NCBI GenBank assembly: GCA_020636645.1
Contig: JACJXO010000002.1
Span: forward strand, 106,465-170,464
Direction: 5' to 3'
Source of the DNA: Chitinophagales bacterium
GTDB taxonomy: Bacteria; Bacteroidota; Bacteroidia; Chitinophagales; BACL12
DNA length: 64,000 nt
The notes beneath the pieces were generated by a model. It did no database searches, had not been told where the DNA came from, and was given only the letters and a program-made list of their open reading frames with translations. Of the stretch, positions 826 through 63,717 are shown piece after piece; position 1 is the first letter of the stretch; every line of letters begins with the position of its first letter. Position numbers and translations under genes: made by a program.

Positions 826-1826
826 GGTTTCAGCGGACCGTTTTCGGTGAAGATGATGAGATCCATGAGTGCCTGCGCATAACCGGAAACCGGATTGGCC
901 AGCATCAGTATGCTCACCTGTATCAGTTTATCCGGTTCGTTCAGACCATTTCCAATTGGATCGGCGGGAGCGCCATTCACCAGCGTGACGAGATCAGCAT
1001 AGCGTGCAGAGATCAGTTGCCAACCATCCTGATCATTCAATGCTACTTCCAGTGAGAACATATCTTCTTCTCCATCAGTATATACACCATCGCCATTATC
1101 ATCTTCCCGGAACTGGAACAGCACCAGTGCATTGCTCAGGTCGGGCTGTTTGGACAGCAACACATTGAAATAGATATTATCCGGATTGGTTGCCAGGTCA
1201 AAGGTTGGAGCACCATAAGCACTTCCCGGAATATCGATCAGACCAATGAGCCAGTCCCAGCCCACTTCTCCTCCCATATCGTAGTAGGATCCGCCCTGTG
1301 CGGCATTTTCATCGGTACGGATCACAAAGCTCATGTCAGCACCTGACTGAACGAAGCTTCCCCATCCAGGGTTCCAGCCGGCCTCAAAATCTTCCAGCAG
1401 AAGGCCTTCCACAGGTCGGGCGGTCTCTACAGAAACGGAAGTTTCATATACTTCTTCTTCTGTTTCAAAAGTGAGTGATACGTCACATGCTTCTGGCCTG
1501 AACATGGGCAACTGGGTGGTGGTGCCATCCCAGGTAGCGTTTGATGCATCCAGGGTCCTGGAAAATCCGGTTATTGTCTTCACAGCACCGGATTCCTGTC
1601 CGGTGATGGTCAGGGTCCAGTTTATGTTCTTCGAGAACTCTGCGGTGAAAACGGCTTTTTCACCAGCGGCGAAATCGATCTCTGAATCATTTACGGCAAG
1701 TGCCTGCAACAGGTTGAATTCGCCATAGAGATCATTAAGATCCGGACCGTCAAACAGATCAGTTTCACGGGTACATCCTGCCAGAAGGAGGGTGCTTATT
1801 GCGGTTATAAGTGCTATTCTTTTCAT
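822..1826 (-). CDS. Lipoprotein with CBM-like beta-sandwich region (SusE/F-like accessory role inferred)
   Basis: 334 aa with the lipobox MKRIALITAISTLLLAGC. Its stop overlaps the next start. It carries the EDFEAGWNPGWGSF... module. Only 2 nt separate it from the upstream gene. Confidence 0.7.
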   Translation of the reverse strand: MKRIALITAISTLLLAGCTRETDLFDGPDLNDLYGEFNLLQALAVNDSEIDFAAGEKAVFTAEFSKNINWTLTITGQESGAVKTITGFSRTLDASNATWDGTTTQLPMFRPEACDVSLTFETEEEVYETSVSVETARPVEGLLLEDFEAGWNPGWGSFVQSGADMSFVIRTDENAAQGGSYYDMGGEVGWDWLIGLIDIPGSAYGAPTFDLATNPDNIYFNVLLSKQPDLSNALVLFQFREDDNGDGVYTDGEEDMFSLEVALNDQDGWQLISARYADLVTLVNGAPADPIGNGLNEPDKLIQVSILMLANPVSGYAQALMDLIIFTENGPLKP

Positions 1827-1828
1827 AT

Positions 1829-9416: not shown

Positions 9417-9425
9417 ATTTCATCC

Positions 9426-9451
9426 GGGGAGCTGACAATCAGCTCCCCTTT
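9426..9451 (+). terminator. Hairpin GGGGAGCTGA-CAA-TCAGCTCCCC followed by TTT (weak or partial terminator)
   Basis: A 10-bp perfect stem lies directly after the stop at 9416, but the T-run is short. Confidence 0.45.
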
Positions 9452-9464
9452 AAACACTACCCAA

Positions 9465-11971: not shown

Positions 11972-12961
11972 ATGAGAAAACTTAAAACATTATTTCTGGC
12001 AGGTCTGTGTTCTGTTGGCATATTGTCAGCACAGACCTATGATGTGCTCTTCATTGTTGATATGAATGAAGTAGCAGATCCGTTCACCACACCTGAAGTG
12101 AATGGCACTTTCAACGTCTGGTGTGGAGGTTGTGCTCCTATGAGTGATGATAACGGAGACAATATCTGGGAACTGACCATCCCCCTGGATGCAGGTACAT
12201 ATGAATATAAATTCGCCTATGACACCTGGACCGGACAGGAATCACTTACACCCGGTGATGAGTGCACCCTGACCACAGATATCTTCACCAACCGATTGCT
12301 GGTTGTGTCTGAAGACATGGAACTGGATACTGTTTGCTGGGGAAGCTGCGATGCTTGTGAAGATGTACTGCCCTCCTATACGGTTACCTTCAGAGTAGAT
12401 ATGAGTCAGGTAACTGATACCTATACGACACCTGAGGTAAACGGAACATTCAATGACTGGTGCGGTGGTTGTGCTCCTATGGCAGACGATGATGCTGATG
12501 ATATATGGGTGCTGGATATCGTGCTGGAGCAAGGCTCCTATGAGTACAAGTTTGCCTATGATGCATGGACAGGTCAGGAAGAACTGACTGAAGGCGATGC
12601 CTGTACCATCACTACCGATGCATTCACGAACAGGGCGCTTGACGTCAGTTCTGATACGGTACTCACAGCGGTTTGCTGGGGATCATGCGATGAATGTGTG
12701 ACAATACCTGAGGCCATTGAAAATGTTACGTCAAACTTGTCTGTATTTCCTAACCCGGCCAGTGAACAGATATTCATTAGTGGTTTGCCTGCTTCCGGAA
12801 TTGTTCAGCTGTTTAACAGTCTGGGTCAGCCGGTCCGTTCAGAGCAAATTACATCAGTATCTGGCAGTATTTCTGTTGTAGGACTTTCCGCCGGGGTCTA
12901 CACCATACAGGTGCAGGATCAGGACGGTCAAATACAGAGCAGCATTATATTGATACGGTAA
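11972..12961 (+). CDS. T9SS cargo: 2 Cys-rich modules + Por_Secre_tail CTD
   Basis: 329 aa with the signal peptide ...GILSAQ. It has two B-type modules (GTFN.WCGGCAPM). The CTD reads FPNPASEQIFI...VYTIQV. Confidence 0.85.
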   Translation: MRKLKTLFLAGLCSVGILSAQTYDVLFIVDMNEVADPFTTPEVNGTFNVWCGGCAPMSDDNGDNIWELTIPLDAGTYEYKFAYDTWTGQESLTPGDECTLTTDIFTNRLLVVSEDMELDTVCWGSCDACEDVLPSYTVTFRVDMSQVTDTYTTPEVNGTFNDWCGGCAPMADDDADDIWVLDIVLEQGSYEYKFAYDAWTGQEELTEGDACTITTDAFTNRALDVSSDTVLTAVCWGSCDECVTIPEAIENVTSNLSVFPNPASEQIFISGLPASGIVQLFNSLGQPVRSEQITSVSGSISVVGLSAGVYTIQVQDQDGQIQSSIILIR

Positions 12962-12980
12962 TAACGTTCAGTTTGTTTGA

Positions 12981-13008
12981 AAGACGGCCGGAAGGCCGTC
13001 TTTGTTTG
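12981..13008 (+). terminator. Terminator hairpin AAGACGGCC-GGAA-GGCCGTCTT + T-rich tail
   Basis: A 9-bp stem with a GGAA tetraloop is followed by TGTTTGG after the stop at 12961. Confidence 0.6.
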
Positions 13009-13353
13009 GCGACTATATACCTAATGGGAACAGCTTTGTAAGGCGTTAATATACAGCAATTTACACAGGTAATTAGCTGACCTGATTAGGTTTGTCTAAG
13101 AAATTTTTGAGAATAGCCTAAGTAATTTGTTCGGCTAAGACTGAATTTGAGGCGATTTCAGTTAATGGGGGTTAACTGATTGCGAGCTGTGAAACAATAG
13201 TTAACAAGTTCTAAATACAATTATTCTTGCATTATTGAAACAATCTAGTTTATTTGCAGTTAACTTTGTAAAACTAAGTGGACTTGGGGTCACTCTAAAA
13301 CTGCCTTAAGTGGACCGCATGGAATTAATGGAAGAATTTATTGAGGGGCGAAG

Positions 13354-13425
13354 ACCGCATGGTGAGAATCGAACCCACATCTCCAGATTAGCAGTCTGGT
13401 GTTCTATCCGTTGAACTACATGCAG
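13354..13425 (-). tRNA. tRNA, class I (4-nt variable region), anticodon GCU by manual fold; isotype uncertain or atypical
   Basis: Manual cloverleaf. The acceptor stem is CTGCATG/CATGCGG. The D arm is GTTC-AACGGATA-GAAC. The anticodon arm is CCAGA-CTGCTAA-TCTGG. The variable region is AGAT. The T arm is GTGGG-TTCGATT-CTCAC. The discriminator is T and no CCA is encoded. Confidence 0.7.
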
Positions 13426-13862
13426 AATAGAAAGTAGGGGGGTCTAAATGATCCCCTTTTTTTCACCCCTTGCTTGTTGGGTGATCCATCTATTCAAATC
13501 TTCGCCTCATCTTAAGGCACACAAATTTATCGAATTTTTTGTACCTAATCTCTTAAGATGTTTGTTGGAGGGCCCAATTTAAGTCGTGTTAATTCTTCAC
13601 CAAATTCAACTTATTTATGATATTCTGGGGCTTCATACTGCTCCCTCCTGCCTACGGCTGCGCTGACTATGATGTAGTCTTTGCCCACTTCTAAGGCCTT
13701 GACGGTGCGCTCTCCCTTTTCCGGATGGTGTAGGCGTACTTCTGTGAGTTCTGGGTGCGGGGTGTTAAAGGCAGCGTCTATGACCTGCTCAAAGTCTCCG
13801 TGGATCTTCAGCTTCTTTTTCGTATTTCTTTGGTCGTTCTGCCATTATCTCCAACACTTGAT

Positions 13863-14525
13863 TTATTCAATGTATACCCATGATGGAGGGATTTCATAGC
13901 TAATTTCATCATTTCCAATAATATTATCCATAATGGAACTGCGAAACTTACCCTCGTTATTCTCCAAACGTTTAGCTTTTTTCCGAACAAATCGATTCAG
14001 ATCAAAACTGTTTCTTCTAGGTGGGAAAAAAATTTTTATTCTTTTATTAGGATAGTTTCTCCTTATAAACTCTAACGGTGGTACTAGGTCACTATCTGCA
14101 GAAATTAGTACAATTAAATCAACATTGTCGAAAACACAGTCTTCAATTAGATTAACTGAAATATTAACATCAGTTCTTTTTTCCTCTCTTAAATCAAACT
14201 CCTGGTGGCAACCTCCAATAGCATTACATTTAACCGTCTTAGTATAATACTTACCGTAAATCACCCTCAATAAATCGTTATTGACAAATCTGTTCGCATT
14301 AAAGAATGTTGTTTGCCTACTTGCTTTATTTGGATCAAGGGGCATGGCTGTGAAGTATTTCACACATACTAATTCATGAATATTTGGATCTAGAAATGAT
14401 CTACAAAACCCCACTAAATCAATCCAATAGTACTGCTGCCAACGGGCATGTATTTTCGCCTTGGCTGTCCTTAAGCCATAGTAAAAATTGAATCCGTCAA
14501 TATAGAATATAGTTCTTAGTTGCAT
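13863..14525 (-). CDS. NYN-domain (PIN-like nuclease fold, LabA-like) protein
   Basis: 220 aa. The N-terminus IFYIDGFNFYYG and the later VLISADSDLVPPLE acidic cluster are characteristic of NYN domains. The gene is AT-rich. Confidence 0.65.
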   Translation of the reverse strand: MQLRTIFYIDGFNFYYGLRTAKAKIHARWQQYYWIDLVGFCRSFLDPNIHELVCVKYFTAMPLDPNKASRQTTFFNANRFVNNDLLRVIYGKYYTKTVKCNAIGGCHQEFDLREEKRTDVNISVNLIEDCVFDNVDLIVLISADSDLVPPLEFIRRNYPNKRIKIFFPPRRNSFDLNRFVRKKAKRLENNEGKFRSSIMDNIIGNDEISYEIPPSWVYIE

Positions 14526-14551
14526 AAAAAAACCGCCTGTATGTCGGCGGC
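14526..14551 (-). terminator. Minus-strand terminator (CCGCC-loop-GGCGG followed by T7 on the minus strand)
   Basis: The plus strand reads AAAAAAA-CCGCC-TGTATGT-CGGCGG. It lies downstream of the transposase remnant and abuts the NYN start codon. Confidence 0.5.
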
Positions 14552-14666
14552 AAACTAACCGAGTTACCAGTTAGCGAGGTTATACTGCAAATCTAACGTC
14601 CAACTAGACAAAAACGCAAAAATTTAACACTTATTTTCATACTATTTGCATTTAACTTGCTAATTA

Positions 14667-15485
14667 TCAAGTAATTAAATCAATATTTCTGAGCCGGGCA
14701 TTGCCTACTCTCTCCAATACCTTGTCGAAGCGTTCGGTATCTGTGGCATTGCGGGTGTTGTACCTATATTCAAATTCATGGCAGTACTTCTGCAGGTGCT
14801 TCGGGCTGACATAATGGTAGATGCCAATAATACCCCTCTTCAACAGGCTGAACGCCCCCTCTATGGTGTTGATATGGACATTACCCCTGACATACTCTCC
14901 CCGACCATGTGCTACGCTGTCCACAAGATAGAGCCTGTGCGATGGCCGATAACCACTGTATTCGTCAGTATGTAGAATAGCCCCTGGCTTGACGTTGGCG
15001 AGGACAAACTCTCTCATATTCTTGGCCAATGCACGTTCTACCTGTAAATACCTGATCTCTCCCTTTCTCTCCAATGCACCCAATACATGCGTTTTCTTGT
15101 TCACCCATTTAGGGCCGTCAGTGTTCGGGTATTCTTTCGGAACTTGCCGTGCTTGTTGCTTTCTTTTCCTCCTATATAGGTTTCATCTAATTCCACGTCT
15201 TCGGTCAGGAGTTCGGCTGCATTTGTTCCTAACATAGTCCTGATGCGGTGCAGAATGAACCAAGCTGTTTTCTGAGTTACTCCCAGGTCACAGCTTAGCT
15301 GCAAACTGCTGATACCCGTCTAAGCCCCTGTCCTTAAACCTTGTCTTGGTCCGGTAATAGTGTTCACTCCCGCAATGCGGACACTCTGGCTTGCCATTCC
15401 ATCGCTTCAGCTCCAAATACTCAAAACAAACCCGCTCATTGTGGAAGTGCTTTTGTAGCTGTAATAATGTCTTAAATTTAGTCAT
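14667..15485 (-). pseudogene. IS1595-family (ISXO2-like) transposase, disrupted: three frame fragments plus an internal deletion
   Basis: Fragment 1 carries the zinc ribbon CPHCGSEHYY. Fragment 2 reads (GISSLQ)LSCDLGVTQKTAWFILHRIR...DETYIGGK. Fragment 3 is the DDE domain ...ILHTDEYSGY...NTIEGAFSLLKRGI.... The fragments sit in three different frames. The segment between the zinc ribbon and the HTH is missing. Confidence 0.8.
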
Positions 15486-15539
15486 GGCTCAGGCTTTTAG
15501 TCACAAATAAATCTATTCCCAATAAATACCTAAATTACA

Positions 15540-16052
15540 ATGAATGATTTTTACCACTTCATGAGTAGTGGCCATCCAAATGCAGTGCAAATCAATAGAA
15601 TAATTGACTCTATCAGGGGTCGCTACATTAGTATTTTCACAATACTTGAAGGATCAATTGATAGAGTAATTGCAGGGTATTATGCTCCAACAAAAACAAA
15701 AAGAGATCATCTTTTGACAAACCTTCTCGGACACCGATTCTGTTCCTTTGAATTAAAGTCATCTGTTCTAACAGAAATCCTTAAAGACTCAGGAATTGAA
15801 GGATATAAAGCCAAGCTGTCTGGTTTAGCTCAATTAAGAAATGCCCTTGCACATAGACCTATATATGCAATAGGGGAATTTACAGAAGACCCGAACGAAC
15901 TATTTTACTATATACCATCATATCAAATGAATTACGAACACAATTTAAGGTTAGAGTCAATCAAGTATGAGCTAACTGAAGAAAACTTTAATGAGTATAG
16001 CGAGAAAACATTAGAAATAGCAAAAATGCTAGACCAGTTTGTTTCCAAATAA
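15540..16052 (+). CDS. Hypothetical protein with a HEPN-type Rx4H motif (LAQLRNALAHRP)
   Basis: 170 aa, predicted all-helical and AT-rich. The RNxxAH signature fits HEPN/Abi-like RNase domains. No partner MNT gene was seen. Confidence 0.4.
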   Translation: MNDFYHFMSSGHPNAVQINRIIDSIRGRYISIFTILEGSIDRVIAGYYAPTKTKRDHLLTNLLGHRFCSFELKSSVLTEILKDSGIEGYKAKLSGLAQLRNALAHRPIYAIGEFTEDPNELFYYIPSYQMNYEHNLRLESIKYELTEENFNEYSEKTLEIAKMLDQFVSK

Positions 16053-16385
16053 AAAACGGTATCACCTTGCCGCCTTTGGATTTGGTAATACCGTCTCGCT
16101 GAAAGCTGAATATGCCTATTCCCTTTCAACTCCCCCACAGAGAAAACCTTCTGATAGCCCCCCTGTTCAGAACGAGGACAACAAATGTACCCATTATGTA
16201 TATAGTTAATAAATTATTAGGTGTTCTTCAAATATTTCTTAGATAGACTTAATCTGTTACGGTTGCAACCTCCGAGCATGCTGTATATAAATATCTTGTA
16301 AGGCTATTCCCAATAATGATATAGGTTCGTAAAAGAGAAGAATAAAATTAATATAGTATATTCGCAAAATCTAAATACAGTATAT

Positions 16386-18923
16386 ATGAAAACCAATTGG
16401 CTCTTGATATTATTGACAATTTGCCATTCTGTTTATGGACAAACAAATTCAATATCAATTAGTGGAACAAACTATGATATTCAAGAGGATCTCTACGGAA
16501 TCCATATTCAAAAATATTTTACCAATACATATACTAGCACAAGCTCAACAACATATGTTGGAATGGATCCAGAATTGGCAGAGGAGGGACTAATTGGACT
16601 TCAACCAGAAATTGTTAGATTTCCTGGAGGCGGAAGTAGCAGATTTATGCATCCGCACCCGTCTTATGGTTCCAGCTACTCTTACGGTTGGAATCTAGTT
16701 GAGATATGTAATTATTATGCGTATGTAATGGATGATTATTGTAGCTGTAATTGTGAGGAATTAGCTGCTACAGCTAGTGTTGACGGAACTTTTGACGATT
16801 TTGATGAGCTTGACGATTTTTTTTCAGAGATGGGAAGTGTAACTGATTGTTCAGATGCAGCAACTGATATGGAAAACAATGAAGGCGGTAGGTTAAGGGA
16901 AGTGATTAGCAATCAAAATGATGCCGCAAGTCCATATATTGATCAATTTATTACTCTAATTTTGAATATGGAGGATGAGCTTGAGAGAGATGTAGATGTT
17001 GTATACTGTGCAAACATACTTACGTCATCTGCCACGGAAATAGTTGAAACTTTAAATTATCTTATTACTTCGGGGGTTAATGTAGTAGCCGTTGAGCTTG
17101 GAAATGAAACCTATTCTAACTTTAATGCTCCAGTTTTTAATGATGATATGAATTATAAAGGATTCGAAAATTATTGGGACTATATTAACGGAATTGGCTT
17201 GTCAGCGAGTTGCACTAAGTATGATGAATTAATTGCAAAGCCAAGAAATGGTAACACAGATCATGATTTTATTGATGCCATTAGAAGTACATATTCTTGG
17301 GGTATAAATATAAAAATTGGAGTGCCAAGTATTGGACATGATGATTTTACCAATGTATTCAGATTTAGTGAGGAAGAGGAGGAGGAAGAGTTTACCCCCG
17401 GAACAATGCCAATGGGTTGCCCTGGAAGACATGGAGATTGGAATGCGGGTATACAGTCAAAAATGAGTGAAACAGTTGAAGTTTCAGGCATTGATTATCC
17501 TTCCTTTGATGGCGTCGTAATTCACCCTTATTATGCTGACTATGACCTTTTTGATCGAATGGAGGCTATTGTATGTGCAGCTGGGGGTATTGAAGATGAT
17601 GTACCAGACTGTGAGGATAATGAAATTCAGCAATTAACTGAGGAATATGATTTTTCGATGGTTGTAGAGGAACTTGATCCTGCATTCGACGGAAACTTGT
17701 TATTTACAACTTACTTATTTTTAAAGAGAAATATGGAGTTGGCTGGTGTATCCAGTAACGATGGTTATTTTGAGCAGTTTATAAAAGCTATTCAAGATGA
17801 TTATGGTTTTTTTGGAGGTGAATATGGAAAGGAACTTTGGACTACAGAATGGAATTATGCAAATCTTTCGGATGTGGTTCCATATGCTGGAGGTCCAAAA
17901 GATCTATTTAGCATATATGGTAATACTCTTTGGCAAGGTTATGTAGTATTTGAATATTTGATTAGGCAGATACAAGCAAATCTATTGTCTATTACAGATG
18001 ATGATGGTCTAGGTTTTGATGCAGATTTTTATACTATTTCGACTATACATCATTTTTTGGGAGAATCAAATGTGCACCTTATATCCAATCGTAAGGATAA
18101 TATTGGTGATTATAATGCACCTGTCCTCGAAGATGATGAGTATGTTAGGAGGATTTCATTTTTGTCAATGGCAATGTTGGCACCTATTTTCAATCTTGAT
18201 TTGAAATACACTGCATGTTCATATGGAGGCGTTAACAAAAAGCTTTACTTAACTACATTTAATAAGTCTGGGGAATATTTTGTGTATTATGTTAACTTGA
18301 ATAATACTGATCAAGAAGTAACAATTTCAGGCTTAGATTCATATTATACTCCACCACCTATACCCATGGAATGTCCAACATGTTGGCGTCAACATTACCA
18401 GTTAAATTATGTAGGTGGGGATGAATGTTATTTAGATAATTGCTATTTGTATAATACAATGGGATCATCATATTTGTTTGATACAGACTTCAACACATTT
18501 TATTCAGATCCTGCGGATATACCATTTACTATACAGCCTGACATAAATAAGGAGAATGTAATCTTGCCTTTGCCGGAGGAGGAAATGTCTGAGGATTTAA
18601 GTGTTATTCTACCAAAAATGAGTTTCGGATATGTTTATATACCTGTTCATACCTGGGGCACTTTACGAGAAAGTGGTTATACCCAAAAGCTTATAGCATA
18701 TCCAAATCCAACAAGTTCCAATGTGCAAATTGAGTTATCAGATAGTATTTTTGGGGATATTGAAGTGTTTGATAATTTAGGCGCAATAGTTCTTCAATAT
18801 AGCCCAAATACATATGAAACACTCATTAACTTAGACTTGTCTAATTTGGCAAATGGCTTATATCATATTAAAATAGTTTTTAATGATATGGACGTTGAAA
18901 TGATACCTATAATAAAAAATTGA
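16386..18923 (+). CDS. T9SS-secreted clan GH-A-like glycosidase candidate (very AT-rich gene)
   Basis: 845 aa with a signal peptide. Motifs are RFPGGGSS, VAVELGNETYS (NE motif) and ELWTTEWNY (candidate nucleophile). There is an acidic EEEEEEE tract. The CTD reads YPNPTSSNVQIEL...LYHIKIV. Confidence 0.55.
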   Translation: MKTNWLLILLTICHSVYGQTNSISISGTNYDIQEDLYGIHIQKYFTNTYTSTSSTTYVGMDPELAEEGLIGLQPEIVRFPGGGSSRFMHPHPSYGSSYSYGWNLVEICNYYAYVMDDYCSCNCEELAATASVDGTFDDFDELDDFFSEMGSVTDCSDAATDMENNEGGRLREVISNQNDAASPYIDQFITLILNMEDELERDVDVVYCANILTSSATEIVETLNYLITSGVNVVAVELGNETYSNFNAPVFNDDMNYKGFENYWDYINGIGLSASCTKYDELIAKPRNGNTDHDFIDAIRSTYSWGINIKIGVPSIGHDDFTNVFRFSEEEEEEEFTPGTMPMGCPGRHGDWNAGIQSKMSETVEVSGIDYPSFDGVVIHPYYADYDLFDRMEAIVCAAGGIEDDVPDCEDNEIQQLTEEYDFSMVVEELDPAFDGNLLFTTYLFLKRNMELAGVSSNDGYFEQFIKAIQDDYGFFGGEYGKELWTTEWNYANLSDVVPYAGGPKDLFSIYGNTLWQGYVVFEYLIRQIQANLLSITDDDGLGFDADFYTISTIHHFLGESNVHLISNRKDNIGDYNAPVLEDDEYVRRISFLSMAMLAPIFNLDLKYTACSYGGVNKKLYLTTFNKSGEYFVYYVNLNNTDQEVTISGLDSYYTPPPIPMECPTCWRQHYQLNYVGGDECYLDNCYLYNTMGSSYLFDTDFNTFYSDPADIPFTIQPDINKENVILPLPEEEMSEDLSVILPKMSFGYVYIPVHTWGTLRESGYTQKLIAYPNPTSSNVQIELSDSIFGDIEVFDNLGAIVLQYSPNTYETLINLDLSNLANGLYHIKIVFNDMDVEMIPIIKN

Positions 18924-19024
18924 TCGTGCTTGTGATATGGTTCTCAGAGCGAATAAGATTATTTTTGTTAAATTGTAAATTACTCTTTTAATATCGTTAT
19001 TTTCCTGCTGCTTACCTTTGCGGG

Positions 19025-37381: not shown

Positions 37382-38890
37382 CTACTGTATCACCATCAGT
37401 TTCGTATCCACCACTTTTCCATCCACCAGCAATGTATAGCTATAAGTACCTGCTGCCAATTGTGTAGCATCTACTTCTAAAACACCATTGCCCAGTTTTA
37501 CATCAGCCATGAACAGGCTTACCCCGGCAGCATCGGCTATTTTTATAATTGCCTGTTCGGCAGTTTCGGGTACAAAATAGCGTATGGAGGTACTACCGGT
37601 AAAAGGGTTGGGTCTGTTCTGAGAAAGGGTGGCCTGCGTTTGGTTTGAGGCTACAAAGATCCGTTGTACCTCATCCGTTGTTGACTCATTCATCTGAATA
37701 CCTTGTTGACCAAGCAGGGCTTCCAGTCTGGAAATGCGATCTTCCAGATTTGTATTCTCTGCATCCAGTTCCTGCACTGCTTTTACCAGCGGTACCACAA
37801 AGGTGGCATAGCGCAGGCCCAGGAGGCGACCGCTGGCATCTACGCCGCTGAACTCATACCCCAGGTCTTCTGCCGCAGCAGCCACTTCCTGGGCTATGAA
37901 TCCGGAAAAGGCCTGTTCTTCAATGTCGTATTTGCCGGTCCACGTAGCGGTATCTACTCTGCCCATCAGCTGGTTCTGGGTAGTGATGTTGTAGTGGTAG
38001 GTAACCGGCCGCAGCTGATTGATGAAATCCAGCCCCGGCACATTCTCTTCCACCTGCTCTTTGATGCGGGCATCGCTGTACACGGTCCAGTCCACCTCAC
38101 CACCGATGCTGGAGACGCTGGAGTTGCCGATTAGAACTTTATTGGAAGCATCTACTACAGCTATATATCCAACAGCTATTGAGTTCTCAAAATCATTACC
38201 AGTTGTAGTAGCATTGTAGCCAATTCCAATATTATAATTACCTGTTTTATTGACATTTAGAGCCAATGCTCCTATTGCTGTATTACTATTCCCCAGTGTA
38301 TTATTTGATAAACTTGCACGACCTATCGCAGTATTTTCATTCCCCTTTGTATTATCACTCATTGCACTGGAACCTATCGCAGTATTCTCGTTTCCTATCT
38401 TATTGCTCAGCATAGCATTAGAACCGATGGAAACGTTATTATCACCACTCTTATTAGAAAAAAGCGAATAATTTCCAATAGCTACATTGCTTTCTCCAAA
38501 GTAGTTGTATTTAAGAGACAAGTATCCAACGGCAACATTTTGTGATCCGGACTTGTTGTACCGCATAGCCTCTGCTCCAATGGCTGTGTTATATGATCCA
38601 ATTAAGTTGTCAGTCAAAACAAGCCATCCAATAGCAGTATTGTAATCACCATCAAGATTGCTGGTAAGTACTCCTTCCCCAAACCCGATCCCGGCAGGTC
38701 CATTGTAAATAGTTGAGGTTCCTAACCCAATACTGGCATGCCCATCAGGAGAATTGATGTCCAGCAGAAGTTCCGGTGTTGTGGTACCAATACCCACAAA
38801 TCCGGAGTCGGGAAAGATATTCTGTGCGCTGGCCGGGTTAATGACAGCTGCCAGAAACGCCATGCAGATCAGTTGAATAAGGTTTTTCAT
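37382..38890 (-). CDS. Fibre-like protein: YadA-head/tail-fibre-type NTAIG repeats + Peptidase_S74 intramolecular chaperone domain + T9SS CTD
   Basis: 502 aa with a signal peptide. It has about 10 repeats of G..NTAIG..A...N. The S74 signature is SDARIKEQVEENVPGLDFINQLRPVTYHY...GFIAQEV...LRYATFVVPLVKAVQEL. The CTD reads NRPNPFTGSTSIRY.... Confidence 0.8.
   Translation of the reverse strand: MKNLIQLICMAFLAAVINPASAQNIFPDSGFVGIGTTTPELLLDINSPDGHASIGLGTSTIYNGPAGIGFGEGVLTSNLDGDYNTAIGWLVLTDNLIGSYNTAIGAEAMRYNKSGSQNVAVGYLSLKYNYFGESNVAIGNYSLFSNKSGDNNVSIGSNAMLSNKIGNENTAIGSSAMSDNTKGNENTAIGRASLSNNTLGNSNTAIGALALNVNKTGNYNIGIGYNATTTGNDFENSIAVGYIAVVDASNKVLIGNSSVSSIGGEVDWTVYSDARIKEQVEENVPGLDFINQLRPVTYHYNITTQNQLMGRVDTATWTGKYDIEEQAFSGFIAQEVAAAAEDLGYEFSGVDASGRLLGLRYATFVVPLVKAVQELDAENTNLEDRISRLEALLGQQGIQMNESTTDEVQRIFVASNQTQATLSQNRPNPFTGSTSIRYFVPETAEQAIIKIADAAGVSLFMADVKLGNGVLEVDATQLAAGTYSYTLLVDGKVVDTKLMVIQ
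37706..38077 (-). other. Peptidase_S74 / endosialidase-chaperone-like domain (aa 272-395)
   Basis: It starts at the conserved S-D-x-R-x-K and ends in a coiled coil, NLEDRISRLEALL. Confidence 0.7.
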
Positions 38891-38912: not shown

Positions 38913-40841
38913 TTAAAAATAAGTTATCACGATGACGACCCCGTTGGCGCCATCACCCCCGGCACCACTGGTATGTCCTGAGCCGGCAGCACCACCACCG
39001 CCACCTCCTGCGCCGTAGCTGGCTCCGTTGCCCCCGCTTCCGGCTGTTGCGGAAGCACTGGCAGCGCCCCCACCACCACCGGAGCCCAGGTAATTACCGC
39101 TCTCTGCTGTTCCATTACCACCACTGCCCCCGGAAGTACCTCCGCTGCCTGCTGCCGGAGAACTATTCATGAACTGGATATTGCCCCCGCCGTCACCACC
39201 CGAATAGGCGGTTCCGCCACTGCTGATACCACCTCCGGCTCCTCCACCCAGGCTAGCGTAGTTGCTGTTGCCCGCATCATCGCCCTGGTCTGCCGGGTCA
39301 GCACTGGCACCAGAGCCTCCCTGAGACTTCAGCCCCGGACCACCTGACCCTCCGGCTGCCCCTGTCGAGGAGCCCCCGTTCCCACCGTTGCCTCCGCTTG
39401 CCTTCAGGTAATCGCCAAAAAAGGATTTGGTGCCATTGCCACCGTCCTTTCCGTCGCCGGAACTTACGGCAGCTCCTCCTGTTCCACCGGCACCCGCATA
39501 GGCCAGTACATTGGCATCCAGGTTGGCAGCGTTGAAGGTCATTTCACTCATGCCTCCGGCGCCTCCTCCCGATCCTCCGGACATGTCACCGGTAACCCCA
39601 CCACTGCCTCCGCCACCACCACCGCCAATACAGATGACTGTCACCGAAACAGCCCCGGTAGGTTTAGCCCACAGAGTAGTTGTTCCTGTAAACACCTGTA
39701 CGTCGGTTACCACAGTCTCCCAGTCTAAGTTGCCTGACCCATCGGTCTGCAATACCTGGTTGGCATCGCCATCATCATCCGGCCAGGTGTAGCCAACGTC
39801 ATTGATACGTACCAGGTCGCCGGTGGAACTGACCTGAAATTCATCTCCGGATCCTACATTGAATGTATTTGACAATGTTGAACCGCTATTGCCGACACTG
39901 AATTTACCAGAACTCAAATCGCCATATAATAGATTTCCAATATTTAGCCTGTTGCTTAAATCCAAACCGGTTGATGGATTTACTGAAATATTGTTACCGA
40001 TTACAATATTATTATTACCTGATTGGCTTGGAAAGCTACCTTTCCCAGATTCCGAGCCAACAAAAATGTTATTGCTCCCGTCGCTAATAGATGAGCCAGC
40101 TGAATATCCAATTACTGTATTTTCAACACCTTCTGTTAGGCCTATAACTGAATTATAACCTATTGCAACATTATAATCACCTGAAGTTACATTACCCAAC
40201 ACACCAGTAGTAGTTGAAGTACCGCCGATAGCAATGTTGCCATCACCGGTCACCTGCGGGCTATCTGAATTATTATAGTAGGTATTTTGGCCAATTCCAA
40301 TATTTGATGATCCGGTTGTAATCAACTCACCAGCTCTGCTACCGATCATTGTATTCTTGCCGCCGCTGGTAATATTGCTGGATGAGTACCATCCAACCGA
40401 AGTATTGTGCCCTGCAGAACCAGTGACTGTTTCTAAGGCTTTATATCCGATACCCACCGTTCCATGATTGGAGCTCGAAGCTGCATCCCCTGCATATTCA
40501 CCAAGAAATAAACCATCATACGAACCTCCTGTAACGTGCAGAAATTTATTGCTGTTTAGTTTCAGCATATCTACATTGCTGTATCCTTCTGCTTCATCAA
40601 AGTGAATGACCTTTTCCAGATAAATTTCTGACCAGCTGGAATCTTCAGACCCTAAATTCCGATCTGCATCAGGCAAAAGATGTGAATTGATATTAGTTGT
40701 TACGTCCAGATTGCTCAGGTCTTCACAGGCGGGATCACATGTCTGTGCAAACATGCGGTTACCACACATGGATGTGAGCAACAAACAAACGATCAGTTTG
40801 TAAAATGGGGGGGGGGGGCTTAACAGGAAATTAACCTTCAT
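38913..40841 (-). CDS. Secreted fibre-like protein with degenerate NxxIG repeats and a ~260-aa glycine-rich C-terminal domain; no T9SS CTD
   Basis: 642 aa. The signal peptide contains the C12-encoded PPPP. YTWPDDDGDANQVLQTDGSGNLDWE is followed by WAKPTGAVSVTVICIGGGGGGGSGG.... It ends in ...GANGVVIVITYF. Confidence 0.75.
   Translation of the reverse strand: MKVNFLLSPPPPFYKLIVCLLLTSMCGNRMFAQTCDPACEDLSNLDVTTNINSHLLPDADRNLGSEDSSWSEIYLEKVIHFDEAEGYSNVDMLKLNSNKFLHVTGGSYDGLFLGEYAGDAASSSNHGTVGIGYKALETVTGSAGHNTSVGWYSSSNITSGGKNTMIGSRAGELITTGSSNIGIGQNTYYNNSDSPQVTGDGNIAIGGTSTTTGVLGNVTSGDYNVAIGYNSVIGLTEGVENTVIGYSAGSSISDGSNNIFVGSESGKGSFPSQSGNNNIVIGNNISVNPSTGLDLSNRLNIGNLLYGDLSSGKFSVGNSGSTLSNTFNVGSGDEFQVSSTGDLVRINDVGYTWPDDDGDANQVLQTDGSGNLDWETVVTDVQVFTGTTTLWAKPTGAVSVTVICIGGGGGGGSGGVTGDMSGGSGGGAGGMSEMTFNAANLDANVLAYAGAGGTGGAAVSSGDGKDGGNGTKSFFGDYLKASGGNGGNGGSSTGAAGGSGGPGLKSQGGSGASADPADQGDDAGNSNYASLGGGAGGGISSGGTAYSGGDGGGNIQFMNSSPAAGSGGTSGGSGGNGTAESGNYLGSGGGGGAASASATAGSGGNGASYGAGGGGGGAAGSGHTSGAGGDGANGVVIVITYF
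40807..40818 (-). repeat. Homopolymer C12 (G12 on the plus strand) within codons 8-12 of the fibre gene
   Basis: Counted directly as 12 consecutive G at 40807-40818. A tract of 11 or 13 gives a premature stop within 4 or 16 codons (my translation). Confidence 0.9.
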
Positions 40842-57986: not shown

Positions 57987-58718
57987 ATGGCCCTACTTCC
58001 CTGGCAGACTGCGGTGATCACCAGGGTCACCCAGGAGACTGCCAATACCCGGCGGTTCTTTTTTGAGATCAAGGACAGCGGCCCTTTTGTGTTCAGGCCA
58101 GGCCAGTTCGTTACCCTGGACCTTCCTATCCATGATAAGCAAAGCAAACGCATGCGCAGTTATTCTGTTGCATCCTGGCCTGATGGCAGCAATACGTTTG
58201 AACTGGTGATCGTGCTGATGGAAGGCGGTGCCGGAACCACCTATCTGTTCAAAGAAGGAAAACCCGGAATGGAAATTCCTTTTCGCGGGCCATTAGGGCA
58301 TTTCTGCCTGCCTGATACCCTTGAGCGTGATATCTGCATGATCTGCACCGGAACCGGTATTGCTCCGTTCCGCAGTCAGGTTCAGTACATCCGGCACGCT
58401 CAGGTACCCTGTAGAGACATCCATATCATATTTGGTACAAGAAAGATTGGCGACATACTCTACCGTTCAGAACTGGAACAGTTGTCAAGAGATATGCCTT
58501 GTTTGCACTACCATGTAGCCCTGAGCCGTGAAACTCCGGAATCATGGAACGGTCATATTGGATATGTACATGATATATATGAAAAAGTGTGTGAAAATGG
58601 ACAAAAGGATATGGATTTCTATCTGTGTGGCTGGAAGAATATGGTAGATGAAGCCAGAAACCGGCTGAAAGATATGGGGTATGATAAGGAACGCATCCAC
58701 CTGGAACTCTACGGTTGA
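57987..58718 (+). CDS. Ferredoxin-NADP-reductase-family FAD/NAD(P)-binding oxidoreductase
   Basis: RSYSVAS is an RxYS FAD motif and GTGIAPF marks NAD(P) binding. It is 243 aa. Confidence 0.75.
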   Translation: MALLPWQTAVITRVTQETANTRRFFFEIKDSGPFVFRPGQFVTLDLPIHDKQSKRMRSYSVASWPDGSNTFELVIVLMEGGAGTTYLFKEGKPGMEIPFRGPLGHFCLPDTLERDICMICTGTGIAPFRSQVQYIRHAQVPCRDIHIIFGTRKIGDILYRSELEQLSRDMPCLHYHVALSRETPESWNGHIGYVHDIYEKVCENGQKDMDFYLCGWKNMVDEARNRLKDMGYDKERIHLELYG

Positions 58719-60583
58719 TGTTTTTACCGGTTCTGCTGATACCATTGGCGGCCTGGGTCTGGAGCCGCCTTTTGATCTCCCGTGCTGATGGCATGGCAGG
58801 CACCTGGTCTCGTACTTTGATCCTGCTTTCGGGTTGGATGGTCTGTATCACAGAAGGACTTTCTGCCGGTTATGCTTTAGAACAGCAATGGCTGATGGTG
58901 GCCTGGGTGGCCTTTCTGTTGACCGGCATCCTGCTGCTGAAAGACCGGACCCTGCTGTGGACCTTCACACTGCCGGCAATAGGGAAACAGGAACGTTGGT
59001 TTGCCGGCTGGATCCTGCTTGTATTAATGCTTACTGGTGTGCTGGCCTGTGTGGCTTATCCTAATAACTGGGATAGCATGACCTATCACCTGACAAGGGT
59101 CGAGCACTGGATGCAAAGACAAACGGTCATCCACTATGCCACCAATAATGTACGCCAGGTGTCACAGCCTCCGCTGGCTGAGTACTGGATACTTCATATC
59201 CTGTCGCTTGGTGGTATAGACCGTTTGGCTAACCTGGTGCAATGGACTGCCTGGTTGATCAGTATGATCAGCATTTGGGGGATTCTTGGAGTGTGGGGCA
59301 TGAGCAGAAAGGTGCAATGGAGCGGAGTATTGCTGGCAGCCGCCCTGCCCATGGCCATCCTGCAAAGCACCAGTACACAGAATGACCTGCTGGCAGCAGC
59401 CATGATGCTGCAAAGTGTTTACTGGGCCTTTCGTGTACGAAACGGAAACAGACAGGCGGTCTGGTGGATGCTGACGGCATTCAGCCTGGCTGTGTTCACC
59501 AAAGGCAGCAACTATATCTACCTGTTACCGGTATTGCCTTTTGCGGCCATCTGGGTGCTCCGGCAATTTGGCTGGTCCTGCTGGAAACCGGCCTTGTTCG
59601 GTCTTGCGGTGTTGTTGGTTTTTAATGGCCCGCACTGGGTGCGTAACCACGATACATTTGGCCGATGGACAGGCAGTGACAAGACCCTGGTAAATGACAG
59701 CCATGATCCTAATCAGATGCTGGCAGTTTTTCTTCAGAACCTCGCCATGGAATGTCAGACCCCGATATCCGGATGGAACAGGGCACTTACCAATGCTGTA
59801 ATGGAAATAGAAAAAGGAACGGGTGTGCTGCCGGGTGAACCCACCATCAACTGGGCCCCAAGCCCTTCCTTTTCAGTAGGCATGTCTTCTCTGCATGAAG
59901 ACTATACCGGAAACCTGCTGATGGTCATATTGTCTATTGTCTCCCTATTCATATTAGCGGGAAGATACCGGAAACACCCTGCTGTCATACTGGCTTTGAT
60001 GGTAGTATCTATGGCAGTTCTTTTTAGCTTATTGCTGAAGTGGCAGGTCTGGCACAACCGCCTGCACCTGCCCATGCTGTTATTGTTCATACCGGCAGTG
60101 GCAGTGGCTTTGCAATACCTTTATCAACATGTACGAACCGGAATTCTGATCGTGGTGGCAGCAGCTTCCATACCGTGGCTTGTTTTTAACCAGAGCAGAC
60201 CCATGGTAGGTAAGGAAAGTGTTTTCCGCCATTACGACTATTATCAGTATTTCTTTAACCAGCCGGAATTACTACGCACCTTTTTGCAGCTGGCAGCGGT
60301 AGCAGACCGCAACCAGGTGGAGAAATTGGGATGGGCCACTTCCGGCGATGCATGGGAATATCCGATGTGGCGTATCCTGCAAGACCAGGAGCCGGAAATG
60401 CGACATGTTCTGGTAGGCAATGAGACCAGGGTCTTTGAAAGAAGTGCCTGGCAACCGGAAGGTATCGTTTCCAACCGTGCCGGGCTGGTGGCACTGCCCA
60501 GATTACAATGCCATGGAAGAAATTATTACCGGACCTATACAGACGGGCAATGGGCCTTTTTTCTGCCGGAACCTAATCTCTGA
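58718..60583 (+). CDS. Large polytopic membrane protein, GT-C (ArnT/PMT_2)-like glycosyltransferase candidate
   Basis: About 621 aa with 12 or more TM segments and an extracytoplasmic loop YPNNWDSMTYHLTRVEHW. Its ATG overlaps the upstream TGA (TGATG). Confidence 0.45.
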   Translation: MFLPVLLIPLAAWVWSRLLISRADGMAGTWSRTLILLSGWMVCITEGLSAGYALEQQWLMVAWVAFLLTGILLLKDRTLLWTFTLPAIGKQERWFAGWILLVLMLTGVLACVAYPNNWDSMTYHLTRVEHWMQRQTVIHYATNNVRQVSQPPLAEYWILHILSLGGIDRLANLVQWTAWLISMISIWGILGVWGMSRKVQWSGVLLAAALPMAILQSTSTQNDLLAAAMMLQSVYWAFRVRNGNRQAVWWMLTAFSLAVFTKGSNYIYLLPVLPFAAIWVLRQFGWSCWKPALFGLAVLLVFNGPHWVRNHDTFGRWTGSDKTLVNDSHDPNQMLAVFLQNLAMECQTPISGWNRALTNAVMEIEKGTGVLPGEPTINWAPSPSFSVGMSSLHEDYTGNLLMVILSIVSLFILAGRYRKHPAVILALMVVSMAVLFSLLLKWQVWHNRLHLPMLLLFIPAVAVALQYLYQHVRTGILIVVAAASIPWLVFNQSRPMVGKESVFRHYDYYQYFFNQPELLRTFLQLAAVADRNQVEKLGWATSGDAWEYPMWRILQDQEPEMRHVLVGNETRVFERSAWQPEGIVSNRAGLVALPRLQCHGRNYYRTYTDGQWAFFLPEPNL

Positions 60584-61353: not shown

Positions 61354-63717
61354 TTAGCGCAACAGTACGATCCTGGTCACAACGGTTTCTTTCCCGGTAT
61401 CATCGGCACTGTAAACCATATAGACACCGGTAGCGGCATCCTGACCATTATATCCCTTTCCGTTCCAGATGGCCTGCCCTCCTAATGCAATAGTTTCATA
61501 TATGAGTCTTCCGCCTGTATCAGTAATCTTGACCTGGGCGTTATTGACCAGTCCGCTGATGGCAATTGGCCCGTTGTGTTCGGGCCTGACAGGATTGGGA
61601 AAAACCTTGACATTACCCTGTTCAGCAAGTCCCTGCGTAGCAGTACCCCTGTAGGATACGATGCCTTTGTCGGTGCCGAAATATACTTCGCCGGTCACTC
61701 CATCTATGGCGATACTCAGTACTACATTGCTTAACAGCGGGCTGTTATCCTGATTAAAAAACAACAGCTGTTCTGTGCCGTCTGCTGAAATGAGAAACAC
61801 ACCGCTGTTGGTGCCTATCCATTTTCTGTTGGCGCCATCCACCGTGATGCAGTTGACGATCTCTTTACTGAGCAGATATTCGTTGTAACCACCCAGATTG
61901 ACCAGAGGTTGTGCAGCATCTGCAATGGTACCGCCATCCATCACAGAAGCAGGATTATAAAAAATGGATACTCCTTCATTGGTACCTGCCCAGATCTCTC
62001 CGTCCAGATCTTTGACCAGACAGTTCACATAGGCAACAGGCAGGTTTCCGTTACCTGCGCCAACACCGAGCACACGTGACATATCATCTGCGGTATTATC
62101 TATGTCAGCACCGTGGTCAAACACCAGAATACCATTACCTCTTGGCAACTGTACCCATTTCTGGTTGAAGTCATCCAGTATGATCTGTCCTACCTGTTCA
62201 CCAGTTTCCAGGGGCAGGTTACAATCAAAGTGCATCCAGGATCCATCGGCTTTACGCACTACCAGCGGGTTGCTGGCAGCATAGTTGGAAACCCATAGGT
62301 TGCCTTCTGTGTCAAAGATCATTCCACCAATACGGCAGCTGCCGGGATCTGCTGCTCCCAGGTCCTGCAAACCCATATCGCCGGTATTGGTCTGATCATA
62401 CCGGGTCAGCATACCTGTAGCTTTATCAAAGGAGAACACACCACTGCCAAATGAACCCAGCCAGGCAATACCAGTGGCTGCATCCAAGGTCATGGTGATA
62501 AAATCAAACACATCCGTCAGTGCCGGCAGGTCATACTGATTATAATTATTCCAGAATCCATAGTCCAGCACAAAGAAGCCGTCGCGGTTGTATGTATAGT
62601 TCCAGGAAGCATTGATGGAGCCCGGAGCCACCCATAGCCGGCCGTCGTAATATTCCATTTCAGCCACACTGGAAGATCCGGGTCCGTTTGGCAGGTAGCT
62701 CCGGTATTCATCGTTGCTGATCTCTGTAAGCAGCCCGAAACCATCGGCTACCCAGTAAGCTCCATCGGCATCTCTAATAAAATCATTGGGAGCTGTGAAC
62801 CGACCCTCAGTGTTAAGCTCAGAAACGGATCCGTCGTCAGCAATATCTACCATGCGGTAATCTTCCGGAATCTCCTCATCGCCCTGAATCAGCAGGACCT
62901 GTAATCCGTTTCCGGCAGATCTGCATGTGCGCACCTGCCAGTCTGCTTCTGCATAGTACAAAGACCAGTCGGTGCCGTCAAACAGATAAATGTCTTCGTC
63001 ATTGATGGTTACCGTTACCTGATCATTCCAGGGGGTCAGCCAGCCGGCAGAACCGGTAGGAAGAGTCGTGCCACTCAGGAGGGTCCACCTGGAAAAGTCT
63101 TCCAGCAGCGGTTCATCTTTGCCCGCCACGTATAACCCCACATCGGTTGCTGCAAATATCTGATCATCCTGTGTAAGTACTGACCGCACGTTGATATAAG
63201 CACCATCGGCGTCTGTAAAGAACCATGTTGCAGGGCTTTCTTTTTCTGAGATCTGGTACACCACGATGCCGAAACCAGTAGCGATGAAAGCAGTATCGCC
63301 GGAAAACTGCACCTGATTGATGGATTTGTTGCCGCTGATGCCTGCTGTTCTGATGTAGGGGAAATTGACCAGTTCGCCATCAATGATGAAGTCCATGTTG
63401 CTGTTCAGATAGCTGATGGCTACTGTACCTGTCTCCTTTCCGTAGTAAACCCCGATGGCGTTGATATCATCCAGTCCGTTGGCCTTGTGCAGTCGTTCCA
63501 GACTGTTGTCCTGGAGGTTGAGGTTAAAGACACTGAGACCGGTTGCAGCATAGACCTTTTGACCGGCCAGTGCGATCACATCAGGGCCCCCGTAAGGCAG
63601 ATAGGCTTTCCAGGATCCGATGGCTACCGGAGGCTCCTGTGTCTGTGCTTTCAGCAATGTGGCAGCTACCAGGAAAAAGAGAAAGAAGAACGTACGCTTC
63701 AGCAACATGTGGTACAA
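61354..63717 (-). CDS. Double beta-propeller protein with T9SS CTD (PorZ-like)
   Basis: 787 aa with a signal peptide. It has reg_propeller-type repeats (DGEIWAGTNEGVSIF, NRKWIGTNSGVFLI, GEVYFGTDKGIVSY). The CTD reads VKVFPNPVRPEHNGPIAISGL...GVYMVYS. Confidence 0.55.
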   Translation of the reverse strand: MYHMLLKRTFFFLFFLVAATLLKAQTQEPPVAIGSWKAYLPYGGPDVIALAGQKVYAATGLSVFNLNLQDNSLERLHKANGLDDINAIGVYYGKETGTVAISYLNSNMDFIIDGELVNFPYIRTAGISGNKSINQVQFSGDTAFIATGFGIVVYQISEKESPATWFFTDADGAYINVRSVLTQDDQIFAATDVGLYVAGKDEPLLEDFSRWTLLSGTTLPTGSAGWLTPWNDQVTVTINDEDIYLFDGTDWSLYYAEADWQVRTCRSAGNGLQVLLIQGDEEIPEDYRMVDIADDGSVSELNTEGRFTAPNDFIRDADGAYWVADGFGLLTEISNDEYRSYLPNGPGSSSVAEMEYYDGRLWVAPGSINASWNYTYNRDGFFVLDYGFWNNYNQYDLPALTDVFDFITMTLDAATGIAWLGSFGSGVFSFDKATGMLTRYDQTNTGDMGLQDLGAADPGSCRIGGMIFDTEGNLWVSNYAASNPLVVRKADGSWMHFDCNLPLETGEQVGQIILDDFNQKWVQLPRGNGILVFDHGADIDNTADDMSRVLGVGAGNGNLPVAYVNCLVKDLDGEIWAGTNEGVSIFYNPASVMDGGTIADAAQPLVNLGGYNEYLLSKEIVNCITVDGANRKWIGTNSGVFLISADGTEQLLFFNQDNSPLLSNVVLSIAIDGVTGEVYFGTDKGIVSYRGTATQGLAEQGNVKVFPNPVRPEHNGPIAISGLVNNAQVKITDTGGRLIYETIALGGQAIWNGKGYNGQDAATGVYMVYSADDTGKETVVTRIVLLR

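Follow-up and report, generated by a model that had tools for sequence, protein, structure and literature searches.

A phage-type fiber protein with a predicted self-cleaving chaperone ahead of a type IX secretion domain in a Chitinophagales bacterium

The closest studied analogs of the gene described here are the mosaic adhesive trimeric (MAT) fibers of Bdellovibrio bacteriovorus and the eukaryotic myelin regulatory factor MYRF. In the S74 subgroup of the MAT family, represented by Bd3182, a chromosomal gene encodes a protein with a signal peptide, a trimeric β-helical fiber, and a Peptidase_S74 chaperone carrying the motif SDxxxK (PMC10769870). The structure of Bd3182 ends at A781, the catalytic residue being S782; replacement of this serine (S782A) abolishes self-cleavage, and fusions of Bd3182 to mCherry are still processed (PMC10769870). 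MYRF (also MyRF) carries the corresponding domain, that of intramolecular chaperone auto-processing (ICA), internally, ahead of the segment that determines the location of the protein, in this case a transmembrane anchor, and self-cleavage frees the N-terminal trimer from the C-terminal part (PMC8326128, PMC3742443). Trimerization is driven there by a C-terminal coiled coil, and cleavage takes place only in the trimer (PMC8326128). Type IX secretion system (T9SS) cargo, for its part, folds in the periplasm, is translocated under the direction of its C-terminal domain (CTD), and is processed by PorU, which removes the CTD and may leave anionic lipopolysaccharide (A-LPS) on the new C-terminus (PMC5445135). 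In this work, we analyze a 502-residue open reading frame (ORF) of a Chitinophagales bacterium, contained in a stretch of 64,000 nucleotides (assembly GCA_020636645.1, contig JACJXO010000002.1, positions 106,465 to 170,464; hereafter, the window), in which a fiber shaft and a Peptidase_S74 chaperone are followed by a T9SS type A CTD. Judging from its sequence, we consider it reasonably probable that the product is a short trimeric fiber, built on the plan of phage tail spikes, which is exported by the T9SS and severs itself.

The ORF is 100% identical to the database protein P0001, which comes from a Chitinophagales metagenome-assembled genome (MAG) and is named 'tail fiber domain-containing protein' by NCBI. 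Its parts follow one another in the order Sec signal peptide, repeats, Peptidase_S74 domain, disordered linker, and T9SS type A CTD (Table 1). The signal peptide, MKNLIQLICMAFLAAVINPASA followed by Q, as judged by eye from the translation, begins with a basic n-region, continues with a hydrophobic core, and ends in an A-S-A site, and similar N-termini occur in most homologs, in which signal peptides were called by eye and with a crude script in place of a dedicated predictor. The shaft consists of ten motifs of the form [NS]-x-[AGS]-[IV]-G, starting at residues 84, 101, 118, 135, 152, 169, 186, 203, 220, and 237, with a period of strictly 17 residues across all ten. In the AlphaFold2 models, which are monomers of a presumed trimer, each repeat forms one short strand, and the repeat region matches the phage tail-spike and virion families phrog_4636, 23837, and 6002.

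The Peptidase_S74 domain is recognized by Pfam PF13884, which covers residues 272–344 (E=4e-10; 40.2 bits, the cut-off being 22) and is matched by all of the 76 homologs in the alignment of the full family (A1). The domain opens with S272-D-A-R-I-K277, placing the Ser and the Lys at i and i+5, as in the catalytic dyads S911/K916 of endoNF and S587/K592 of MyRF (PMC8326128). The initial annotation had asked whether a Ser/Lys dyad is conserved, and the alignment shows that it is: neither S272 nor D273 varies, and conservation of R275 and K277 is 90% or more (n=76). The exact pattern SD.R.K is present in 116 of the 120 best database homologs; in other genomes, 68 of the 69 ORFs with a CTD have it as well. 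One CTD-bearing member (L019, 3815-5485) has a degenerate S-A-D-E-R-M-Q in place of S-D-x-R-x-K and is possibly a natural non-cleaving variant. By likeness to Bd3182, the scissile bond of the present protein would lie between Y271 and S272; as in endoNF and MyRF, where cleavage requires the trimer (PMC8326128), autoproteolysis at Ser272 would take place in the trimer.

The C-terminal helix of the domain bears GCN4-like a/d heptads (V372, L375, N379, L382, I386, L389, and L393, read from the sequence), one of the 'a' positions being occupied by Asn, as it is in GCN4, and it gives weak GCN4 matches in a sequence search of the PDB. This coiled coil, which had been listed as an element separate from the chaperone, is part of it, since the phage profile and the phage copies stop just after it and since a coiled coil at this place trimerizes MyRF (PMC8326128). 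A model of the chaperone alone, with a predicted local distance difference test score (pLDDT) of 82.4, has its long helix at segment positions 112–149. Foldseek comparison of this model with the PDB returned ICA or CIMCD structures (7dc3, 3gw6, 3gud) for all of the top 11 matches, at modest E-values (2e-3 to 0.2), the probability falling below 0.3 thereafter. The best structural match is the ICA domain of MyRF (7dc3; template-modeling score 0.56–0.60, 25% identity), the others being the endosialidase 3gw6 and the GA-1 structure 3gud. Sequence searches of the PDB with the tail alone, with the A1 profile, and with a profile of the chaperone (A3) gave no significant match to solved S74 structures.

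The assignment of the CTD needed a test of its own, since in a scan of the full-length protein the domain falls below both relevant cut-offs, which is a point against it: Por_Secre_tail (Pfam PF18962), at residues 427–500, scores 18.9 against 27 bits, and TIGR04183 scores 21.1 against 23. Scanned as an isolated segment of 87 residues, the domain reaches 26.9 bits on TIGR04183, a model that is matched by 24 of 28 CTDs of the family; beyond these, the matches come from tails of named proteases and nucleases that depend on the T9SS. PF18962 is found at E<=1e-3 in 39 of the 76 A1 homologs. Over their whole length, the last 83 residues of the query can be aligned with the very C-terminal ends of more than 100 among the 120 best homologs, one of which, the Pfam-positive P0004, has a CTD 87% identical to the query's. 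In the CTD alignment, the pattern L-x-Q-N-x-P-N-P ... G-x-Y-x-Y-x-L ... M is invariant or nearly so, and the conserved signature also appears with QNxPNPF...GxYxY...DTKxM. The AlphaFold2 model shows a β-sandwich of seven strands between residues 426 and 501, with pLDDT above 92; a 3+4 sandwich is given as the CTD fold in PMC11285876. A CTD profile run against the PDB found a weak match to 8glj_D, a 'Por secretion system C-terminal sorting domain-containing protein' (E=0.018), and Foldseek with the full-length model gave weak, generic immunoglobulin-like (Ig-like) matches for the CTD, including the mirolase CTD 8qb1, which are not T9SS-specific. The domain reaches the last residue of the protein. 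Taking this evidence together, we regard it as a real T9SS type A CTD.

Between chaperone and CTD, pLDDT drops below 50 over residues 397–415. In homologs, 34 to 77 residues separate PLVKAVQE, at the start of the coiled-coil helix, from the CTD motif, a span made up of the remainder of the helix and the linker. The domain order of the initial annotation (signal peptide, repeats, S74, coiled coil, CTD) is thus upheld by Pfam, the motifs, the AlphaFold2 models, and the scan of the isolated CTD; the corollary already drawn there, that a cut at Ser272 would part the fiber from the CTD, follows from this order. As for the secretion machinery, the window contains a homolog of PorZ, a protein of the T9SS attachment complex, and four further ORFs with an above-threshold Por_Secre_tail, so that by sequence the genome encodes T9SS components. 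The core T9SS genes SprA, PorK-N, PorU, and PorV have no counterpart within the 64 kb of the window.

The combination of S74 and CTD is a family trait and not a peculiarity of this ORF. Relatives are encoded in at least 547 loci of species-representative genomes, almost all of them from Bacteroidota (Chitinophagales, Saprospiraceae, Flavobacteriales, and Bacteroidales), and a database search returns more than 7,000. The frequency of the combination in this phylum, which the initial annotation had proposed to survey, proved very high: in 80 of these loci we counted 98 S74 ORFs, 69 of which carry a CTD homologous to that of the query, a lower bound, as CTDs in other genomes were sought by BLAST with the query CTD alone. 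The CTD lies downstream of the Ser and at the C-terminal end in 67 of the 69, and the tail after the Ser has a median length of 247.5 residues in ORFs with a CTD against 143 in the 29 without it. Presence of a signal peptide and presence of a CTD are not associated, most CTD-less members having a signal peptide (Fisher p=0.25, crude predictor). In some of these CTD-less relatives with signal peptides (P0041, P0051, and P0057), the S74 chaperone is joined to collagen triple-helix repeats (PF01391), a further type of trimeric shaft that bacteria pair with this chaperone. A contig labeled as a MAG of Williamsia sp., from the Actinomycetota (L062, JADCRZ010000085.1), also carries a member of the family with a CTD match; it is likely a mis-binned Bacteroidota contig.

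The viral copies give a different picture. In IMG/VR, relatives are present on 168 contigs, and among the best 80 of these loci, counting ORFs with a complete 3′ end, none of 74 S74 ORFs has a CTD; the viral ORFs terminate 101–137 residues past the Ser (median 117). The S74 domain of the query lies directly 3′ of the ten-repeat shaft, and this joint region matches phage tail spikes, residues 166–393 aligning with positions 521–755 of the 763 of phrog_4636 (E=4.4e-63, 214.9 bits). Relatives at about 28–34% identity (30–34% for matches over residues ~50–390) are carried by 90 deposited phage genomes, including SPO1-type Bacillus phages (gp2.52, 'tail spike'), cyanophages, and phages of Pelagibacter and Flavobacterium; their matches end at query residues ~378 to 427, and residues 428–502 are covered by none of the 90. 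By sequence, the repeat shaft and chaperone are a module shared with phages (the initial annotation had proposed a phage origin for the folding device), and the presence of the CTD in 69 of 98 bacterial and 0 of 74 viral ORFs marks the linker and CTD as an addition confined to the cellular copies sampled. On a neighbor-joining tree of a 125-residue chaperone segment, the distribution of the CTD needs at least 19 changes, compared with about 39 when labels are shuffled. With this many gains or losses, the CTD seems to behave as an exchangeable module, clustered but without a single clean fusion event, although the tree is short and noisy and we draw no strong conclusion from it.

Table 1. Features of the fiber gene and related genes; coordinates refer to the window unless a locus is named, and residue numbers to the 502-residue protein
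Feature	Position	Strand	Basis
Complete coding sequence, 502 residues and stop	37382..38890	(-)	ORF listing; sequence identity to database protein P0001
Sec signal peptide, residues 1-22, predicted cut between ASA and Q	38825..38890	(-)	Read from sequence
Conserved N-terminal region of the predicted mature fiber, residues 23-83, N-x-F-P...G-I-G-T-x-x-P motif	38642..38824	(-)	Consensus of alignment A1
Ten N-x-A-I-G repeats of 17 residues, residues 84-253, presumed fiber shaft	38132..38641	(-)	Motif spacing
Last segment of the predicted mature fiber, residues 254-271 (...IGGEVDWTVY)	38078..38131	(-)	IGGQVxWT motif conserved in A1 and A3
Peptidase_S74 intramolecular chaperone auto-processing domain, residues 272-397	37700..38077	(-)	PF13884, dyad, fold comparison
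Ser272 codon	38075-38077	(-)	SDARIK motif
Lys277 codon	38060-38062	(-)	SDARIK motif
C-terminal coiled-coil helix of the chaperone, residues 361-395	37706..37810	(-)	Single helix in full-length and chaperone-only models
Disordered linker, residues 398-420	37631..37699	(-)	Low pLDDT in AlphaFold2 model
T9SS type A C-terminal sorting domain, residues 421-502	37385..37630	(-)	TIGR04183 on isolated segment, relatives, model
Upstream partner gene, 642 residues, 22 nucleotides before the S74 gene	38913..40841	(-)	ORF and Pfam
Partner genes in relatives	L002 1228-3156; L003 6499-7995; L004 931-2472		
PorZ homolog, 787 residues, PorZ N-terminal β-propeller (88.4 bits) and Reg_prop repeats	61354-63717	(-)	Profile search
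Three tandem ORFs with T9SS CTDs	7821-9416, 9465-11924, 11972-12961	(+)	Profile search

Bdellovibrio, to our knowledge, has no T9SS, and the present protein departs from the MAT fibers at the C-terminus. In the latter, the S74 domain is the C-terminal end of the protein, whereas here a T9SS CTD follows; moreover, MATs have about 1000 residues and a conserved β-rich N-terminal domain of ~130 residues, compared with 502 residues and ~60 before the repeats (PMC10769870). The likeness between them concerns the S74 domain and the features given in published descriptions of MATs. Phage spikes (K1F endoNF, 3GW6; T5 pb1; the SPO1 gp2.52 type; phrog_4636) have the same shaft, chaperone, coiled coil, and Ser/Lys spacing. 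They are, however, built into virions inside the cytoplasm, whereas here a Sec signal peptide is present, a linker and a T9SS CTD follow the chaperone, and the gene lies among housekeeping genes. In MYRF, as here, what decides the location of the protein comes after the S74 domain, in our case a secretion and anchoring signal; MYRF, however, is a eukaryotic transcription factor of the endoplasmic reticulum membrane, and what it releases is a DNA-binding trimer, with neither a fiber nor a secretion system involved (PMC8326128, PMC3742443). T9SS type A cargo, such as RgpB, mirolase (CTD 8QB1), and Flavobacterium johnsoniae ChiA, shares the Sec signal and the seven-strand CTD with the TIGR04183 signature. 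So far as is documented, such cargo is processed by PorU at the CTD junction only; here, in contrast, a predicted autoproteolytic site lies ~150 residues upstream, so that the functional part would detach from the PorU-modified end, and the cargo is presumably trimeric.

A further comparison is with the YadA/SadA adhesins, with which the protein shares short N-x-x-A-I-G-type repeats in a presumably trimeric fiber; there is a marginal profile match to the SadA fragment 2yo0 (E=0.02), and JGI labels some homologs 'trimeric autotransporter adhesin'. In YadA and SadA, however, the repeats have 14 residues and secretion is of type Vc, in contrast with the 17-residue period and the T9SS route proposed here. 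Pfam gives no YadA_head match in the protein at E<=1, and Pfam and TIGR scans of the protein detected no C-terminal YadA-type β-barrel anchor. On these three grounds (period, profile, and anchor) we reject a trimeric autotransporter; the initial count of about ten repeats stands, and the YadA-head label given to them does not.

The gene itself is already known, and both domains are already annotated in databases on many members of the family; PF26696 is a further precomputed annotation on many homologs. The consequences of combining S74 with a CTD, on the other hand, appear unstudied: no description of an S74 or intramolecular chaperone domain together with the T9SS was found in the literature searched, the coverage of which leaves out most subscription journals, and a review of T9SS cargo does not mention S74. 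The outer-membrane vesicle proteome of Tannerella forsythia lists a 362-residue 'tail fiber domain-containing protein'.

We propose the following model for this self-severing fiber. The chain would be exported by Sec and its signal peptide removed; three chains would then be joined by the coiled coil of the chaperone (residues 361–395), and the chaperone would template the folding of the ten-repeat shaft. The Ser272-Lys277 dyad, active only in the trimer, would cut the chain ahead of Ser272, while the type A CTD, held at the C-terminus on a flexible linker, would direct the assembly to the T9SS and be removed at the cell surface, as in all T9SS cargo. This would yield a mature fiber of residues 23–271 (25.6 kDa per chain) and a chaperone-linker-CTD fragment of 25.3 kDa. 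With the cleavage site upstream of the CTD, the mature fiber would have no covalent link to the chaperone, the CTD, or an A-LPS anchor; any such anchor added by PorU would sit on the chaperone stub, and the fiber would be released or held non-covalently, possibly by a presumably co-transcribed fiber protein encoded upstream (see below). The CTD would be of use to the fiber only if cleavage follows export or if the fragments stay associated during export. That S74 cleavage is compatible with a C-terminal extension is shown by MYRF, in which a transmembrane anchor and a luminal domain come after the ICA domain, and by the processing of the Bd3182-mCherry fusions.

Besides the sub-threshold CTD scores, several considerations weigh against this model. 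We infer trimerization, self-cleavage, and T9SS dependence from domain content, for this protein as for every member of the family, and the order of cleavage and export with the most reserve. In the phage and Bdellovibrio proteins, cleavage is spontaneous upon folding (for Bdellovibrio, PMC10769870), and the model consequently needs either a delayed cleavage or a lasting non-covalent complex; were cleavage to occur in the periplasm and the fragments to separate, the CTD would export the chaperone only. No precedent was found in the literature searched for the export of a trimer with three CTDs. Finally, 29 of the 98 bacterial relatives have no CTD, many of them still with a signal peptide, which means that the CTD is not obligatory for a fiber role.

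A conserved partner gene lies directly upstream of the S74 gene and had been overlooked in the initial annotation. Its product has a signal peptide, a fiber-like N-terminal half that shares 33% identity with the S74 protein's shaft across 189 residues, and a glycine-rich C-terminal domain (Pfam Gly_rich_2, 30.3 bits); profile scans found neither an S74 domain nor a CTD in it. The pair of partner and S74 genes recurs in four other loci (L001–L004) with different flanking genes, one of which (L001) contains three tandem pairs, with partners at 7942-9978, 12825-14753, and 16737-18653. The gap between the two genes is 5–23 nucleotides across the five loci. The partners share their ~345 N-terminal residues at 35–60% identity and end in three unrelated C-terminal tips (glycine-rich, SO2946-like_C, and a third, unassigned type), in which they resemble the non-S74 MAT members with swapped C-terminal tips (PMC10769870). 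The database holds about five close homologs of the partner, and no partner was found upstream of any of the 98 S74 ORFs of more distant family members in the 80 loci, so that by sequence the pairing is limited to a close subfamily. Around the two genes, a scan for sigma-70 promoters and intrinsic terminators yielded no more candidates than shuffled sequence does, and it is uninformative, since Bacteroidota promoters are of another type than the sigma-70 consensus.

These observations allow a more specific but tentative version of the model, which is possible without being what we would expect: the placement of S74 before the CTD would act as a release or hand-off switch, and in the close subfamily the CTD protein may also carry its upstream partner. 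Its three tethered CTDs would serve for the export of the trimer, modification or anchoring by PorU-type processing would be confined to the chaperone stub, and trimer-dependent self-cleavage would then free the fiber at the cell surface in the manner of MYRF. The CTD protein may in this case be the export carrier or assembly partner of the CTD-less, mosaic-tipped fiber; if so, the two would form a two-component, phage-derived surface fiber system with exchangeable tips.

A rather unlikely alternative is that the fiber is never cleaved and stays anchored, the S74 domain serving only for trimerization and folding, PorU removing the CTD and A-LPS being attached after the coiled coil, to give a trimeric surface adhesin with the chaperone as its base. 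Type A cargo of Porphyromonas and Tannerella is indeed typically anchored by A-LPS (PMC5445135), a trimeric coiled coil would be a plausible base for a stalk, and sequence downstream of the ICA domain can inhibit MYRF cleavage (PMC12803276). In other S74 proteins, however, the catalytic Ser is not needed for folding, as the S782A variant of Bd3182 is a single unprocessed, soluble species (PMC10769870), and nothing would keep the Ser and Lys from drifting if cleavage were dispensable. Their retention in 68 of the 69 CTD-bearing ORFs and across A1 points instead to cleavage being under selection, and it counts against a purely anchored, uncleaved fiber.

We find it similarly doubtful that periplasmic cleavage follows at once upon folding of the trimer, with the chaperone-CTD trimer remaining bound and pulling the fiber, and maybe its CTD-less partner, through the T9SS. 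The spontaneous cleavage of the studied S74 proteins would suit such an order of events, as would the shared repeats of the two proteins and the constant proximity, in five loci and including the three tandem pairs, of a partner with a signal peptide but no CTD. Against it, the chaperone of the studied phage proteins is described as detaching after cleavage, and in the work on endoNF and T5 pb1 it reportedly dissociates fully from the mature protein; piggyback export by the T9SS was not found documented in the literature searched, and the absence of the partner from all 98 distant members indicates that carrying it is not the general role of S74-CTD proteins.

That the gene is a structural gene of a phage or prophage, encoding a virion tail fiber whose β-sandwich is an Ig-like decoration or receptor-binding domain and no secretion signal, is very improbable: the strong match to a phage tail-spike family, the NCBI name, and the Ig-like folds that dominate the PDB matches of the full-length model would favor it, but the protein has a Sec signal peptide, its C-terminal domain bears the signature of T9SS type A cargo and, in isolation, scores above the TIGR04183 cut-off, none of the 74 viral ORFs has this domain, no match in the 90 phage genomes extends over residues 428–502, the bearers are almost all Bacteroidota, the phylum of the T9SS, and the neighbors are housekeeping genes, with no phage genes nearby. 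The neighboring genes encode a Cys/Met enzyme dependent on pyridoxal phosphate (PLP), ScpA, RecQ, an enzyme of the mannose-1-phosphate guanylyltransferase type (ManC), aminotransferases, NusA, and IF-2, which indicates a chromosomal locus, and we rejected a prophage on account of this context. The partner, which matches phage tail families, is the only other phage-like gene among the neighbors.

In the usual picture, T9SS cargo is a monomer whose functional part remains joined to the site at which PorU removes the CTD and adds the anchor. The present protein belongs to a large Bacteroidota family, spread over hundreds of species-representative genomes, with a conserved predicted self-cleavage site between the fiber and the secretion signal, and this raises the questions of whether the T9SS can export an assembled trimer with three CTDs, when the S74 domain fires, and whether the fiber is released or retained. 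It also extends a recent finding, in that the use of phage tail-spike modules as a bacterium's own surface fibers appears not to be confined to Bdellovibrio, and it suggests that the chaperone of phages can be joined to a secretion tag specific to the host. A modest practical value may lie in a possible self-trimerizing, self-releasing secretion cassette for Bacteroidota.

Other parts of the window deserve a brief description. The three tandem ORFs with above-threshold T9SS CTDs contain the starch- or glycogen-binding modules X25, CBM48, and AMPK1_CBM, no catalytic domain being detected in them, and they appear, from this domain content, to be secreted carbohydrate-binding proteins. Four ORFs of 334, 576, 659, and 622 residues, at 822-5538 (-) and 58715-60583 (+), have no Pfam match at E<=1e-5. 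A stretch of low G+C content (36–42%, compared with ~50% elsewhere) extends over ~13350-19000, beginning next to a tRNA-Ser(GCT) gene at 13353-13425. It contains an ORF with an NYN domain, a truncated ORF for a transposase of IS1595 type (14667-15104), and an ORF of 845 residues (16386-18923) in which the sole recognizable domain is a T9SS CTD, and it looks like a horizontally acquired island.

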